This document shows positions 38,998 through 45,082 of a stretch of 64,000 nt of DNA, in pieces. The DNA comes from an uncultured Verrucomicrobiae bacterium (GTDB taxonomy: Bacteria; Verrucomicrobiota; Verrucomicrobiia; Limisphaerales; Palsa-1400), in contig CAVXRD010000002.1 of assembly GCA_963764165.1 (NCBI GenBank), positions 1,696,001-1,760,000 of the forward strand. The letters are read 5' to 3'. The notes beneath the pieces were generated by a model. The model was not told the origin of the DNA, did not search any database, and saw only the letters and a list, made by a program, of their open reading frames with translations. Each line of letters opens with the position of its first letter. Positions within the stretch are counted from its first letter, which is position 1. Position numbers and translations under genes: made by a program.

Positions 38998-39858
38998 TCA
39001 TTTTTGATTGGCTTCAGGCGTTACTTTGTCGATGTTCGGCGTGACGTCCGCGTCCACCTGGCCGGTTGACCACTTCAATCCGCCGAGCAAAATCTGCTGA
39101 AACGTCGGATCCATCCAAACTTCAATGCGATGCCCCAAACTGGTGTAGAAGACGCGCCCTTTGCCGTACATTTGAGCCCAAGTGGAGGGATAATTTGGGC
39201 GGTTATATGGCCCAATTTTTCCCATCTTCGCAGTGTCGTGATAAAGCAAAACGTGGAGATTTGGCGAAAAATTCTTCATCGAATACCACTCTTCCTCCGG
39301 GCCGTAATCATCCGCGACAGAACTGAGGCCGGGAAAATTGCGATCAGCCACCACCAAATGCCCCGGCACCCAGTGCTCGTAGTGCGTTACGAACTCGCCG
39401 CCGATCATTTGAATGAATGGATCGACCGTGTTGCCCTTGCTGTGAAACGTGTCTGTTGCGCTGTGAATGCCAACAAATCCCTTGCCGCCGCGAATTGCCG
39501 CGAGAAAAGCCTCTTTGCCGCCTTTGGGCATCGGCGGGTCATGGTGTTCGCCGAGTTCTGTCAAATCACCAGTCGTGTAAAAACAGAACGCATCGAAACT
39601 GGCGATTTTTTCCGGCGTAAAAATCGAACCGTCCTTCGTGAAGGTGAACCGCAAATTATTTGGAGGCCCCAATTCAGCCAGGATGCGCTCGGCCTGGCTT
39701 GGCCCGCCATTTTCGGAGCGAATCATGTCGTGCTGATAGCCGGACGATTTGGAGAAAAAGAGAATTTTCTTTGGAGTATCGCCGGCGCGCGCCCGCGGGC
39801 AAATGATCACCGCCGCGGCAAAGACAGCGGAGCAAACGAAGCAGAGGAAGTTTTTCAT
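38998..39858 (-). CDS. ThuA-like domain protein (secreted)
   Basis: Signal peptide; FSKSSGYQH, GFVGIHSATD, EEWY, GRVFYTSLGH. Confidence 0.88.
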   Translation of the reverse strand: MKNFLCFVCSAVFAAAVIICPRARAGDTPKKILFFSKSSGYQHDMIRSENGGPSQAERILAELGPPNNLRFTFTKDGSIFTPEKIASFDAFCFYTTGDLTELGEHHDPPMPKGGKEAFLAAIRGGKGFVGIHSATDTFHSKGNTVDPFIQMIGGEFVTHYEHWVPGHLVVADRNFPGLSSVADDYGPEEEWYSMKNFSPNLHVLLYHDTAKMGKIGPYNRPNYPSTWAQMYGKGRVFYTSLGHRIEVWMDPTFQQILLGGLKWSTGQVDADVTPNIDKVTPEANQK

Positions 39859-39942
39859 TGGATCATCATTTTCTCCATCCAGTTAACCCGCTGCCACTCG
39901 CATTTGCCAACAAAAAGGCAGGAATGCATCGGCGCCTTCCCA

Positions 39943-39978
39943 ATACGTCTTATAAGTCCTATAGGTACTATAAGTCCC
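39943..39978. repeat. 9-bp tandem repeat x4 (family D)
   Basis: atacgtctt/ataagtcct/ataggtact/ataagtccc. Confidence 0.75.
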
Positions 39979-40047
39979 ATTCCCACTGGCCGGAAACCCT
40001 CGCATTTTGTGCTCGATTTCCCGCCCGGTTTGCGCCAGCCATTTCTG

Positions 40048-42936
40048 GTGAACACTATTCGAGGAACTCGTGCCGTGCTTTCCCTTGCGGCGATTTTATT
40101 CATCACCATTGCGCCCGCGCGCGCGGCGGATTCGCCGCCCCGCGAGAAACTGCTGCTGGATTTTGGGTGGAAATTTCACCTTGGCGATGACTGGGGCAAG
40201 AGCGAACGCCTCGACAAGGCGGGCGTGAATCCCGGCCCGGCTGGGCGCTCGTTTAACGACGCCCGGTGGCGCACTGTCAACCTGCCGCACGACTGGGTTC
40301 CCGAGCTTCCATTCGACCAGCACGCTGCCACGGACCACGGTTTCAAACCTGTCGGGCCGGGCTTTCCCTCGAATAGCATCGCGTGGTACCGCCGGACATT
40401 TTCGCTGCCCGCCGAGGACAAGGGCCGCCGCCTGATGTTGGAATTCGACGGCGTTTATCGCAATGCGCGCATTTACGTGAATGGCTATTTCCTCGGCCAT
40501 CATGAGAGCGGCTACATGGGATTCCGCTATGACATCACCGATTTGGCGCGATTCGGCAGTGACAACACTATTTCCGTCCGGGTGGATGCTTCGCAATTTG
40601 AAGGATGGTTTTATGAGGGCGCGGGAATTTACCGGCACGTCTGGCTCACCAAGACCAGCCCGCTGCACGTCGCGCCGGACGGAACTTTTGTTTACAGCCA
40701 GTTTCCGAAGAACATTCCCGAGGGCGCCGCGCTGATTCACGTCGAGACCAGCCTGCAAAACGACCAGGACGCCGGCCAGTCCGCCGCCGTCGAATGCGAA
40801 ATTCTCGATCCTGCCGGAAAAGCCGTGGCCCATTTTCAACAATCAGTGCCGGTCGAAGCGTGTTCCACTAAGACCCTGACGCAACTCGCGCCCGTCCAAT
40901 CCCCCGCGCTCTGGTCGCCTGAAACTCCGAACCTCTACAAGCTTATCACCAAGGTTTCGGTTGACAGTAAGGAAGTGGATCGCACGGAAACAGAATTCGG
41001 CATTCGCACCCTGGAATTCGATGCCAATCGCGGCTTTCTCTTGAACGGAAAATTCTGCGAGATCAAAGGCACCTGCAATCACCAGGACCACGCTGGCGTC
41101 GGATCCGCGCTGCCGGATCGATTGCAATTTTTCCGTGTGAGCCGGTTGAAGGATATGGGTGATAATGGCATCCGCACCTCGCACAACGCGCCGACGCCGG
41201 AGCTGCTGGACGCGTGCGACCATCTCGGCATGATGGTCATGGACGAAAATCGCCTGCTCGGCAGCGACGCGCAAAATTTGGATTACCTCGCCGCGCAAAT
41301 CCGGCGCGACCGCAATCATCCGAGCGTCATCATTTGGTCGCTTTTCAATGAGGAAGACACGCAAACCAGCCCCACCGCGCGAAACATCGCCGCCACCATG
41401 CAGAGGGTCGTCCATGAGTTGGACCCGACGCGCCTCTGCACCGCGGCTGGAAATGTCGGCAATGTTTATCAGGGCGTGAACAGCGTCCTGGACGTGCGCG
41501 GCTGGAATTATTATCCGGACTCCGTCGATGGCTACCATCGCGACCATCCGAACCAGCCGGAAATCGGCACCGAGCAGGCCAGCGCCCTGAGCACGCGCGG
41601 CATTTACGCCAACGACAAAACGCGCGGCTACATGAGCGCCTATGACACCAACGCGCCGCCGTGGGCCACCACCTCCGAGCATTGGTGGAAGATTTTTGCG
41701 GCGCGCCCGTGGCTCTCAGGCGGATTCGTATGGACGGGTTTCGACTATCGCGGCGAGCCGACGCCTTACACCTGGCCGTGCATCAATTCGCATTTCGGAG
41801 TGCTGGACACCTGCGGATTCGCCAAGGATAATTTCTACTATTATCAGGCGTGGTGGAGCGACCGCGTCGTGCTCCATATCTTGCCGCATTGGAATTGGGC
41901 TGGCAAGGAAGGGCAGGATATTGACGTGCGCTGCTACAGCAATTGCGAGGAGGTTGAAATGTTCCTGAACGGCCAGAGCCTTGGCCGCCAGACGATGTCC
42001 ACCAATTCGCACCTCAAATGGAATGTCAAATACACGCCCGGAACGCTGCTGGCGAAGGGATACAAGAATGGCCAGGTCGTCGCGGAGGACAAAGTCGAAA
42101 CCACCGGGGCTCCCGTCGCTGTCAAATTAACCGCGGACCGCACAACGATCGACGCAAACGGCGAAGACCTCTCCATTATCACGGTCGCAGTGACGGACGC
42201 CGAAGGCCGGATAGTGCCGCTGGCCAGCAATGAAATTCAATTCACGCTGCAAGGAAACCTCAAAGATCCAGCCATCTCGCCCGGAAAAATCCTCGGCGTC
42301 GGCAATGGCGACCCGAGCTGCCACGAGCCGGATGTGTATGTCCCGAGTCAGCCGAGCCATTCAGTGGGATTGCACGACTGGCGCTACAAACGCGGGCCGC
42401 ATTCCGAAGCCATGAAGGAAACCACCGAGAATTTCGATATCGGCGATTGGGTTTCGGTGGACACCAGCCGCGAGACCGGCCCTCTAAGTCCGAATACGGA
42501 CGCTGTGTTCCGCACCACGTTCGATGCCACTCCCGCGATGTTGAGCGCAACGGGCGTCAATCTGAATTTCGGCATGATCGATGACGAGGGACTGGTTTAT
42601 GTCAACGGCCACAAGGTCGGCGAATCGCACAATTGGGAGGAGCAGCCATCTTTTGCGGTCGGAAAATATCTGCACGAAGGTGTCAATACTATCGCCGTCA
42701 GCGTGCAAAATCACGAGGGCTCAGGCGGCGTCAACAAAGGCGTCTCGCTGGAAATCCTGGACCCGCCTAGGCCAACGGTGTGGAAGCGCAGCGTCTTCAA
42801 CGGCCTTGCCCAAGTTATTGTGCAATCCAGCAAGGTGCCGGGATTATTGTCACTCAACGCGACTTCGGATGGGCTGAAAACGGGGGGGCTGCTAATTACA
42901 GCAGCCAGTGCGACACCACGCCCAAGCGCGCCATGA
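40048..42936 (+). CDS. GH2 beta-galactosidase-like glycoside hydrolase
   Basis: LPHDW, FDGVY, EGAGIYR, GTCNHQD, IRTSHN, RNHPS..WSLFNEE, WTGFDYRGEP; probable GTG start at 40048 followed by a signal peptide. Confidence 0.92.
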   Translation: MNTIRGTRAVLSLAAILFITIAPARAADSPPREKLLLDFGWKFHLGDDWGKSERLDKAGVNPGPAGRSFNDARWRTVNLPHDWVPELPFDQHAATDHGFKPVGPGFPSNSIAWYRRTFSLPAEDKGRRLMLEFDGVYRNARIYVNGYFLGHHESGYMGFRYDITDLARFGSDNTISVRVDASQFEGWFYEGAGIYRHVWLTKTSPLHVAPDGTFVYSQFPKNIPEGAALIHVETSLQNDQDAGQSAAVECEILDPAGKAVAHFQQSVPVEACSTKTLTQLAPVQSPALWSPETPNLYKLITKVSVDSKEVDRTETEFGIRTLEFDANRGFLLNGKFCEIKGTCNHQDHAGVGSALPDRLQFFRVSRLKDMGDNGIRTSHNAPTPELLDACDHLGMMVMDENRLLGSDAQNLDYLAAQIRRDRNHPSVIIWSLFNEEDTQTSPTARNIAATMQRVVHELDPTRLCTAAGNVGNVYQGVNSVLDVRGWNYYPDSVDGYHRDHPNQPEIGTEQASALSTRGIYANDKTRGYMSAYDTNAPPWATTSEHWWKIFAARPWLSGGFVWTGFDYRGEPTPYTWPCINSHFGVLDTCGFAKDNFYYYQAWWSDRVVLHILPHWNWAGKEGQDIDVRCYSNCEEVEMFLNGQSLGRQTMSTNSHLKWNVKYTPGTLLAKGYKNGQVVAEDKVETTGAPVAVKLTADRTTIDANGEDLSIITVAVTDAEGRIVPLASNEIQFTLQGNLKDPAISPGKILGVGNGDPSCHEPDVYVPSQPSHSVGLHDWRYKRGPHSEAMKETTENFDIGDWVSVDTSRETGPLSPNTDAVFRTTFDATPAMLSATGVNLNFGMIDDEGLVYVNGHKVGESHNWEEQPSFAVGKYLHEGVNTIAVSVQNHEGSGGVNKGVSLEILDPPRPTVWKRSVFNGLAQVIVQSSKVPGLLSLNATSDGLKTGGLLITAASATPRPSAP

Positions 42937-42939
42937 GTT

Positions 42940-43042
42940 AAAGGTAGGGACGCCTCGCCGAGGCGTCCGGTTGCGCGTGAATAATGCAAGGGGTCCTCGC
43001 ATAAAGAGCGCCTCACCCCGGACGCCTCGGCGAGGCGTCCCT
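42940..43042. repeat. REP family A doublet whose right arm is interrupted by the IS110 element
   Basis: Left arm aaaggtagggacgcctcgccgaggcgtcc; the right arm stops at gcgtccCT and resumes as accttta at 44480. Confidence 0.92.
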
Positions 43043-43053
43043 GCTATGAATAT

Positions 43054-43059
43054 TGTCAA
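43054..43059 (-). promoter_or_regulatory. Outward-facing -35 hexamer TTGACA (putative circle-junction promoter half)
   Basis: Perfect TTGACA 11 nt inside the IS right end; the junction -10 (catggg at 17 nt spacing) is a poor match. Confidence 0.5.
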
Positions 43060-43119
43060 GTGACTAAACGGGTTCTACGTCATTTTCTTTTTTTGTTTAA
43101 ATGTTTTGATCTTATTTCG

Positions 43120-43310
43120 GAGCGTTTCCTCTTCTGGGTTCGACGGAATGCTTCCGTCGTCCAACCTGCTATCCGCACTTGTTTTTCACAGTGCCATATG
43201 ACGTTTTCGTGTCGGAAGAGGAACGAGCGCGCCCAATCTACCTTTCGGGTTCAGTTCAACTGACCCAAGGGACGGGCGGGCGCGCGCCGTTCCAAAATCT
43301 AATTTTGGGT
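43120..43310 (-). ncRNA. Bridge RNA / seekRNA of the IS110 element (ends approximate)
   Basis: 5' hairpin 43292-43308; target loop 43227-43285 with guides CGUCCCU and AAAGGUAG; donor loop 43123-43225 with AUAGCAG and GUCAUAU. Confidence 0.85.
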
Positions 43311-43350
43311 CTTCATTTTAAATGCTGTCTTTGGTCTTCCTTTCCCCGGC

Positions 43351-44430
43351 TCAGGCCAGGTGCAGCACGGCGGCGGTGGCCCGCCCGGTTTCCATCCGCC
43401 AAATGTCGATGGCCAGCTTGCGCGCGATGGCCACGATGGCTTTCTTGCGCGCGCCCCGGTTTTGGGTTTGGCCCAGCACCTCCCGCCATCGCACCACCGG
43501 CCCGTAGCTGGGCTGGTAGCGAATGACTCGCCATGCCAGTTCAATCAGCAGCCGCCGCAATCGGGGATTGCCGTGCTTGGTGATGGAGCCCGAGATGCTG
43601 TGGCTGCCGCTGGCCTGCACTCCCGGACACAGGCCCGTCAAGCTGGCGACCTGGCGGCGATTGGCGAACCGGTTCCAGTCGAAGACTTCGCGGCGCAGCG
43701 TTTCGCTGGTCAGCAGTCCGACTCCTTTGGGCTGGGGCTTGGCCTGGCTTTGGATCTTGATGGTCACTTCTTGCAGCAGCTTGTCGGCGCCGGCTGCCAG
43801 CGCGCGCAGGATTTCCAAAATGGAGGACAGCCAGGCGGGCAGTTTGGCTTTGTGCTTCACCCATGCCCCCTCCTTCCACCATTGCCCGCTGACCCGGTGG
43901 CCATTGTAAAGCAAGAGGCTGCGTCCTTGGGCCTCATGGGTTTGCCGGTCCTTTTGCAGCTGCTCGCGCAGGCGGGTTTGGGCCCGGACTTGTTCCTGCT
44001 CGGGGGTGGGCACGGTGATGACGGCCAGGGCCTTGCGGTTGCCCTGCACATAGCGGTCCAGCCGCTGAACCATGGCCAGGGCGTCGGTCTTGTCAGTCTT
44101 TACCCCGCGGCCCAACTCATCCCAGTTCTGGGGGCGGACAACGATGTTCTTGACGCCCATTTTCAGCAGCGCTCGATGCAGGGCGTAACCGAAGGCCCCG
44201 GCTTCGTAGCAACTATGCACTTCCCCGGCCAGAGTCAGTTGCTTGGCGGCGAACTTCAGGAAGTCCTCCGGTGTCATTTTCTGGGCCGGCTGAGGCGTGG
44301 CGTCATCGATCTGGCGCACGACTCGGTAACTGTCCGCGTGCACATCCACGCCCAGTTTTATCCGGGTGTATTTGCACGGTGTTTGTGTTTTATTGTTCGC
44401 GTGGGTATTGGTAACGGTGTTCTTTTTCAT
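43351..44430 (-). CDS. IS110-family DEDD recombinase/transposase
   Basis: LGVDVH, YEAG, KTDKTDA (DEDD); GLCPGVQASG (catalytic Ser loop); KHGNPRLRRLL; AIVAIARKL. Confidence 0.95.
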   Translation of the reverse strand: MKKNTVTNTHANNKTQTPCKYTRIKLGVDVHADSYRVVRQIDDATPQPAQKMTPEDFLKFAAKQLTLAGEVHSCYEAGAFGYALHRALLKMGVKNIVVRPQNWDELGRGVKTDKTDALAMVQRLDRYVQGNRKALAVITVPTPEQEQVRAQTRLREQLQKDRQTHEAQGRSLLLYNGHRVSGQWWKEGAWVKHKAKLPAWLSSILEILRALAAGADKLLQEVTIKIQSQAKPQPKGVGLLTSETLRREVFDWNRFANRRQVASLTGLCPGVQASGSHSISGSITKHGNPRLRRLLIELAWRVIRYQPSYGPVVRWREVLGQTQNRGARKKAIVAIARKLAIDIWRMETGRATAAVLHLA

Positions 44431-44491
44431 ACCTTGGTGTAGCACCCGTTGTGCTCACCTGCCAATACCCATGCCATCTACCTTTATCGCC

Positions 44492-45082
44492 CTAGTCCAG
44501 CACTCGGTAGTAGTAACTTGCCGCGCAAAAACCGCCGTCGGGGAATAACGCGAAATTCGGAACATCGCCCACCCGGACCCAGCCGAGTTTTTCGTAAAGC
44601 CGCGCGCCGTCGCTTCCCGTCACTGTGTCAAGTGTGAGCAGCGTCCGACCGCATTCGCGCGCGGTTTGCTCGGCCGCGCGCATCAGGGCCGCGCCCAATC
44701 CGCGCCGCCGCGCCCGGCGATGGACGAGCATTTTCATAATTTCGGCGCGGTGCTGCTGGTTCTCCGGGCTGGCCAGGCCAAGTTGCACTGTTCCACAAAT
44801 TCCCTGTTCGTCCTCAGCTACAAAAAGTATGCGCTCGCCGGACACGACGCCGCTCGCGACTTTTCGCCAAAAGTCGATGGCCCTTTCTCGTGAAACCGGG
44901 TTCATGAAATGCACGCTCGCGCCGCCCTGCACGCAGTCGACAAGAACGTCCGCCAACTGGAGAAGGTGGCGCTCCTCAACAGCATCCAATTTGCGCGGAA
45001 CCAATGAGCATGGAGACGCATCTGACACGACGGCGAGATACAACCATGCCGGCCTGCGCGTCAATTTCAAATCGACGCTCAT
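44492..45082 (-). CDS. GNAT acetyltransferase (start uncertain, possibly ~45028)
   Basis: GASVHF, HRAEIMKMLV, RRRGLG, LTLDT, LYEKLGW. Confidence 0.88.
   Translation of the reverse strand: MSVDLKLTRRPAWLYLAVVSDASPCSLVPRKLDAVEERHLLQLADVLVDCVQGGASVHFMNPVSRERAIDFWRKVASGVVSGERILFVAEDEQGICGTVQLGLASPENQQHRAEIMKMLVHRRARRRGLGAALMRAAEQTARECGRTLLTLDTVTGSDGARLYEKLGWVRVGDVPNFALFPDGGFCAASYYYRVLD

Follow-up and report, generated by a model that had tools for sequence, protein, structure and literature searches.

An IS110-family element inserted in a host REP of a Verrucomicrobiae bacterium, with a predicted two-loop bridge RNA at its right end

The window, that is, the whole 64,000-nt stretch of DNA analysed here, contains an IS110-family element with an IS1111-type layout, and the best explanation of its features is that a transcript of the element gives a two-loop bridge RNA guiding recognition of both target and donor. 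A probability of about 0.88 is assigned to this reading. It is built on the anatomy of the element, on the covariation of guides with flanks and of the RNA scaffold among relatives, and on DNA with joined ends in one relative, all of which are observed; its transcription, RNA ends, binding and chemistry we infer. The preliminary description of this DNA had proposed an RNA-guided recombinase naturally programmed against a host repetitive extragenic palindromic sequence (REP), and at the sequence level guide covariation, an intact enzyme and the genome-wide occurrence of the REP speak for that proposal. Judged in this way, the element adds a new member to a known class of RNA-guided recombination systems and brings no new mechanism. 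The novelty is limited because the mechanism, bridge RNAs at the right end and REP targeting are already in print.

The whole element lies on the minus strand at 43043-44479 and measures 1437 bp, including one copy of a 2-bp core; the conservation shared with relatives ends exactly there. The core is found once at each end of the element (43041-43042 and 44478-44479), and the right core was AG in all 99 loci of at least 42% identity whose right end was located. The recombinase gene (43351-44430, minus strand) encodes 359 amino acids, with the Pfam domains PF01548 and PF02371 and a score of 166.9 bits against NCBIfam NF033542 (cut-off 140). Residues D29, E76, D113 and D116 are invariant among 34 homologues, and S274, followed here by G275, is at least 90% conserved. 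The predicted protein model (pLDDT 81.6) finds its best matches in IS621 and ISCro4, at about 20% identity (Foldseek E 1e-10, TM 0.58). With an open frame, both domains, a score above the cut-off, the catalytic residues kept and a matching fold, the protein is a DEDD + Ser enzyme of the IS110 family, comprising a RuvC-like DEDD domain and a Tnp domain with the catalytic serine, and its gene is intact, as had been claimed.

The non-coding region 3' of the recombinase gene is 308 nt long (median 309 in 91 elements). Subterminal inverted repeats are located at 43046-43063 (right, plus strand, 3 nt from the core) and 44455-44472 (left, minus strand, 7 nt from the left end when the core is counted in); they are imperfect, matching at 14 of 18 positions here and at a mean of 12.5/18 in 73 elements. 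The 7.0-Mb genome has this one copy of the element, and no further copies, solo ends or solo RNAs of it were found there. A second, distant IS110-family gene of the genome (L175:778-1866 in G000:C1; 362 aa, 201 bits) has a C-terminus that looks atypical, and a search with the RNA model near this gene gave no match. The neighbouring genes, encoding a GH2 beta-galactosidase (39130-42936) and a GNAT acetyltransferase (44492-45082), converge on the REP pair; translation of the GH2 beta-galactosidase (NCBIfam GalA) probably begins around residue 310-340 of the frame as listed.

Excision of the element in silico reconstitutes a REP arm, which belongs to an inverted pair. The interrupted arm (43018-43042, plus strand) is composed of the palindrome and the core and contains the left target, and the rest of the REP continues past the element as the right target (44480-44485, plus strand). 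The insertion point is the AG of the REP's GTAG. The intact partner arm, in inverted orientation (42940-42970, plus strand), also reproduces the 13-bp target perfectly. In the genome, 57 occurrences of the reconstructed 13-bp empty site were counted, compared with 0.21 expected, and the shorter 10-bp target has 278 matches, 57 of which possess the three further bases. REP arm matches number 545, with 288 starting GTAG and 148 starting GCAG, and 151 arms are in convergent pairs (<200 bp). The target is a GTAG-type REP with hundreds of genomic copies, and the earlier identification of the REP as the target is borne out by this genome-wide distribution and by the excess of the 13-bp site. In the search for a cognate Y1 (RAYT) transposase, ten Y1_Tnp matches were found in the genome, none with this REP at a distance of up to 600 bp. 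A left-flank search in four genus relatives identified no orthologous empty junction, returning gene and REP matches only. Across the family, hairpins with z < -2 were found in 25 of 66 right flanks and 18 of 66 left flanks, an excess that hints weakly at a preference for structured targets.

The same REP also hosts a second, unrelated element of the IS1182 family (1673 bp, 486 aa, NCBIfam NF033551 346.7 bits; e.g., C1:66871-68544, L174). It is represented by 13 full copies, one of them 1866 bp long, and by 14 copies of a 130-bp miniature with the same ends. The insertion point of this element is the middle of the REP palindrome (30 sites in G000; apart from the full and miniature copies, these comprise three ends lacking a partner within 2.5 kb). 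Its transposase is a DDE enzyme.

The comparison with relatives started from 142 fetched loci, 141 with a recombinase match and 120 with an RNA anchor, reduced to 115 after five fetched twice were dropped; the covariation set comprised the 107 loci at or above 42% identity. Homologues are present in 8 of 31 genomes in the family search and in 48 of 401 in the order sample, own genome included, and the closest relatives with named genomes, 67-70% identical, belong to Limisphaerales assemblies. Among 1261 plasmid records no named close relative was found, the best match being 36% identical and without a name.

The left target guide (43268-43276, minus strand) has the 9-nt register of IS621, and its inner 7 nt match the flank 43036-43042. 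In 64 distinct guides of the family, it agrees with its own flank at 5.77 of 7 positions, compared with 3.34 after permutation (0/20,000), the best of three registers being taken on both sides. The control without reverse complement was also above permutation (3.71 vs 3.24, 2/20,000), because the targets are palindromic. With a fixed register and no register filter, the own flank prevailed over the swapped one in 28 of 33 tree-independent pairs, with 3 losses and 2 ties. A held-out test was provided by nine copies in genome G472, found after the model was built, and all nine match at 6/7. The right target guide (43238-43245, minus strand) matches 44478-44485, and in relatives it covaries over the core and about 4 nt only. 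Its inner 4 nt agree at 3.17 positions, compared with 1.39 after permutation (0/20,000; 36 distinct guides), with 17 wins, 5 losses and 2 ties over 24 independent pairs. Outward from the core, the match rates are 0.89, 0.92, 0.75, 0.61, 0.42 and 0.17, where 0.23-0.37 is expected, and the outer 2 nt are at chance (0.58 vs 0.47; 2711/20,000).

The two target segments had been described as covering 13 bp exactly. The letters are exact; as a measure of recognition the figure of 13 bp is overstated, since relatives show no covariation at the two outermost nucleotides of the 8-nt right guide, and about 11-12 bp is supported. As guide support falls outward in relatives, the 8/8 right match of this element represents the long end; once a REP site matches over 10 bp, the three bases beyond are present in 57 of 278 cases in any event. 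The covariation of guides with flanks in homologues, which the preliminary description had led one to expect, was found for both target guides (the right one over its inner 4 nt or so) and for the right donor guide.

Each of the matches is only 7-8 nt long and GC-rich, and singly the three exact guide matches recur in 171, 119 and 131 of 20,000 shuffled versions, with dinucleotides kept, of the 308-nt non-coding end (0.6-0.9%), as might be expected if they had arisen by chance or as a by-product of local sequence duplication. In the same shuffles two of the matches were found together five times and all three never, and in independent pairs the guides change together with the flanks on a scaffold that is retained. 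The covariation results refute such an origin, to which we give next to no credence. In the L008-L032 clade (G006, G007), a 53%-identical relative with eight matches per genome, the guide is one base out of register. Some right flanks in that clade run into what may, judging by a motif, be the starts of Y1/RAYT genes.

The right donor guide (43166-43172, minus strand) matches 43041-43047 at 7/7, and the left donor guide (43198-43202, minus strand; 5 nt) has four matches and one G-U pair to the left end 44473-44477. Six of the seven letters of the right donor guide were set by the search anchors, leaving one testable position, and this position agrees with the element end in 96 of 96 cases (87 C, 8 G, 1 T). 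The guide also agrees in three distant elements that have other letters (L147, L156, L149). The 21 loci without the anchor were re-read: seven are cut by a contig end, two are one interrupted copy, and two are truncated or mis-parsed. The right donor guide matches in seven of these 21, and three of the ten full-length anchor-less RNAs are exceptions or unsettled, with a mismatched right donor guide in L084, a deletion in L130 and an ambiguous reading in L131.

In the left donor guide the two core-facing letters vary freely, with 12 different dinucleotides in 98 elements, and the guide is therefore about 5 nt long. The donor pairing put forward earlier is thus upheld for the right guide, which matches fully and tracks the element end, and is shortened for the left guide, which had been given 7 nt. 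Position 2 of the left donor guide accepts C, T or A, and its sole co-change among close relatives belongs to one clade; sequence comparison speaks weakly for covariation of this guide. In the element studied, A stands opposite the core C (C in 49 of 98 elements).

The target-loop handshake dinucleotide AU (43236-43237, minus strand), complementary to donor positions 6-7, and the donor-loop dinucleotide GU (43164-43165, minus strand) are both those of wild-type IS621. The AU faces a donor AT in 63 of 77 elements, and the donor-loop pair is inconsistent across the family. With this donor and this target the number of Watson-Crick pairs rises from one before exchange to three afterwards; such asymmetry is reported in PMC13626964 as favouring insertion. 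The donor sequence is also represented by a 1829-bp contig of a 70%-identical relative (L045), which is terminally redundant over 127 bp and has the right end joined to the left across a single core. These joined ends confirm the donor sequence as DNA, the contig being an assembled circle or a tandem dimer; for the present copy no such junction was seen.

The predicted bridge RNA of about 190 nt (43111-43301, minus strand) is supported by folding and by a covariance model in which it is combined with 60 relatives. The 191-nt stretch 43310-43120 folds with -75.7 kcal/mol (z = -4.75), and none of 200 shuffles was as stable. All eleven segments named in the preliminary description are exact at their coordinates, and the stems that it gave appear in this fold. 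The stem closing the target loop (43227-43285, minus strand; 43285-43278 with 43234-43227) has 94% of cells paired and two-sided changes in 6 of 8 pairs, and the hairpin inside it (43247-43266, minus strand) has them in 5 of 7. The stem closing the donor loop (43126-43223, minus strand; 43223-43215 with 43134-43126) has 98% of cells paired and two-sided changes in 8 of 9 pairs. The donor loop contains an inner hairpin (43175-43194, minus strand) and a second, variable one (43141-43159, minus strand), which makes it a multiloop. Altogether, across 61 RNAs aligned by sequence only, two-sided changes are seen in 32 of 42 scaffold pairs, against 21.1 when shuffled and 13-22 when slid, with kinship among the aligned RNAs raising all pair-change counts. 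The search of Rfam gave nothing near a gathering score (three chance hits). In the 3' non-coding region of L001, about 60 nt spanning the 3' half of the donor loop are duplicated in tandem; the sister copy L003 lacks this duplication.

A proposed closing helix (43114-43298, minus strand; 43298-43288 with 43124-43114, 10 of 11 pairs) competes with the 5' hairpin at 43308-43292 that had been described. When ten more bases are included, the closing helix is the best fold (-76.7 vs -75.7 kcal/mol), the hairpin being best only if the sequence is cut at 43120. In the family, 8 of 11 pairs of the helix show two-sided changes, with only 75% of cells paired, and duplexes of own sequences gain modestly over permuted ones (-8.06 vs -7.17). 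None of the six pairs of the hairpin shows two-sided changes, in a region where the alignment began and where 33-57 of 61 rows have gaps. A weak hairpin of some kind can be folded on the 5' arm alone in 42 of 85 sequences. As a family feature the 5' hairpin is unsupported, not excluded: covariation does not favour it in what is a weak test at a gapped alignment start, and the closing helix fits better.

According to PMC11187229, a short 82-nt RNA sufficed for the movement of ISEc11, and in CazIS110-1 the target-loop-only RNA is given as 90.4% of bound transcripts (10.1101/2025.10.25.684509). By analogy with such seekRNA-type use, a processed RNA of about 80 nt bearing the target loop alone could guide insertion here, with the protein reading the ends at the subterminal repeats and the donor match being accessory. 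The existence of these repeats, the almost fixed donor sequence and the short left donor guide fit this alternative. It is nevertheless quite improbable, as the right donor guide follows changes of the right end in all 96 cases and in the three distant elements, the donor stem is the best-paired helix of the RNA, and truncated CazIS110-1 RNAs alone gave no product, again according to 10.1101/2025.10.25.684509. The alternative is compatible with the two-loop bridge RNA, and both RNA forms may exist.

In the preferred reading of a two-loop bridge RNA, a transcript that crosses the recombinase gene and continues into the right end would give the RNA of about 190 nt. The target loop would pair with both REP strands around the AG of GTAG, over 7 nt on the palindrome side and about 4 nt on the other, and the donor loop would pair with the excised circle where its ends are joined, over 5 nt to either side and, on one strand, the core as well. 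If the reaction follows that of IS621, two recombinase dimers would cut beside the shared 2-bp core via serine-linked intermediates and exchange strands, and the AU and GU handshake letters, gaining two Watson-Crick pairs by the exchange, would favour insertion. Cut-out versus copy-out transposition is disputed in print.

A strict promoter scan of the linear element found none. Within the right repeat, the minus strand reads as a perfect -35 hexamer at 43059-43054, and a perfect -35 with 17-bp spacing across the junction is present in 63 of 73 elements; the -10 hexamer is poor, and a junction promoter is not claimed. A conserved pattern in the left end (TTGGCA, 18 nt, TACACC; 44436-44465, minus strand) may serve as an alternative, internal promoter. 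The pattern, which was picked from the alignment, is found in 69 of 77 elements, and with 5 nt between its end and the start codon, a nearly leaderless mRNA would be implied. Left ends conserve a TACACC at 17-18 nt from a preceding -35-like hexamer, and this arrangement is also found upstream of an ISSso6-family gene (L145).

The copy may be recent, weak or inactive, since it is single despite 57 perfect and 278 10-bp targets. It is unlikely, if less so than the use of a target-loop RNA alone, that the RNA is real in the family and this particular copy is a passenger with little or no activity left. The single copy, the many empty targets, the mismatch that faces the core in the left donor guide, and the existence of broken relatives (L014, L130) would agree with such a state. 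Against it stand the open frame with all catalytic residues, two intact ends and the fit of all four guides to the present flanks, and the core-facing dinucleotide in question is shared by 12 of 98 elements.

With IS621 and ISCro4 (PMC11208160, PMC11208158, PMC13626964), the element shares the order of target loop and donor loop, the CT core and the AU and GU handshake, as well as similar scaffold letters around the target guides, a short right target guide, the DEDD + serine enzyme and its fold. In IS621, however, the RNA is upstream of the gene, whereas here it is downstream, with the CT frame opposite to the gene. The left donor guide of IS621 has 8 nt, compared with 5 nt here in a donor loop that is a multiloop; a 5' hairpin is present in IS621, whereas a closing helix is favoured here, and the proteins are only about 20% identical.

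With the IS1111 group (ISEc11, ISKpn4 and ISPa11 seekRNAs; PMC11187229), the element shares a non-coding region 3' of the gene, the placing of subterminal repeats at 7 and 3 nt from the ends, and the rule that the top-strand match precedes the bottom-strand match in the RNA. The IS1111 repeats are usually 11-13 bp and near perfect, whereas here they are longer and imperfect. Donor guides in a multiloop are also known in IS1111 elements, and a REP target in ISPa11; the donor multiloop was noted for many IS1111 orthologues, and bridge RNAs, mostly at the right end, were predicted for 93% of the IS1111 elements in ISfinder (PMC11208160). Predictions in the same paper include ISCARN28, ISAzs32 and ISPa11. 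Enzymes of the ISKpn4 and ISKpn2 families are 23-25% identical to the 359-aa recombinase, and in the IS1111-group loci no hit of the RNA model was stronger than E 0.18.

The nearest named relative tested is an ISRel9-family element (RefSeq, L149), which has the same end layout and core, an RNA downstream of the gene and a sister-group position in the tree. The RNA model matches it with 14.6 bits (E 1.6e-4), and all four guides fit its flanks and ends; the protein identity, however, is only 30% over 307 aa, and the donor and target letters differ. In a tree with six reference proteins, a midpoint root and no IS110-group reference, the recombinase and the ISRel9 family form one group (bootstrap 99), to which ISKpn2 and ISKpn4 do not belong. 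The layout is IS1111-like; by protein sequence the recombinase may or may not belong to the IS1111 group. In supplementary table 1 of PMC11208160, ISRel9 clusters with ISAzs35 and ISMno20, and the representative of the present clade is row 633, from Verrucomicrobia and without an ISfinder name.

REP targeting is known for ISPa11, ISPpu9 and ISPpu10 (PMC11187229, PMC12288879). The latter two, from Pseudomonas putida (PMC12288879, 10.64898/2026.03.19.712850), insert at an AG core in REPs or paired REPs, as here, and the target-side stem-loop reported for ISPpu10 is likewise present at this site. Unlike the element studied, they belong to the IS110 group without subterminal inverted repeats, and the likeness is by description only. 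Targeted literature searches found no paper on the present clade, which the 86 models of a 2026 preprint predicting 32,190 bridge RNAs (10.64898/2026.10.21.760802) may already include. These searches gave no paper on IS110 in Verrucomicrobia with repetitive extragenic palindromic sequences, none on ISRel9 in full texts and none on a three-way-junction bridge RNA of IS110.

It is possible, at somewhat less than even odds, that this clade and ISRel9-like elements form an uncharacterised widespread subfamily combining IS1111-type ends and polarity with an IS621-like scaffold, in which donor recognition is split between a short guide and repeats read by the protein. A closed three-way junction, as opposed to a 5' hairpin with two free arms, is part of this tentative reading. 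If it is true, the subfamily offers direct natural evidence that downstream-encoded RNAs need the donor loop, on which the seekRNA and bridge RNA papers differ (PMC11187229, PMC11208160), and also dozens of naturally reprogrammed target guides. Elements of this family, with the RNA downstream, keep a co-evolving donor loop, which bears on the question of target-only versus bispecific RNAs. The recombinase is a candidate bridge recombinase about 20% identical to enzymes with solved structures, and its guides, core, handshake and ends have been mapped by natural covariation. An orthologue screen sampled the broader IS621-like clade, according to 10.1101/2025.05.14.653916, and this branch may be new to testing. 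The guides are short (about 11-12 target and 12 donor positions), and no gain of specificity over IS621 would be expected.

A distant clade of 36-38% identity (L012, L015, L019, L022, L025, L028, L141, L142) has CG or GG instead of AG after the right end, and the core therefore differs between its two ends.
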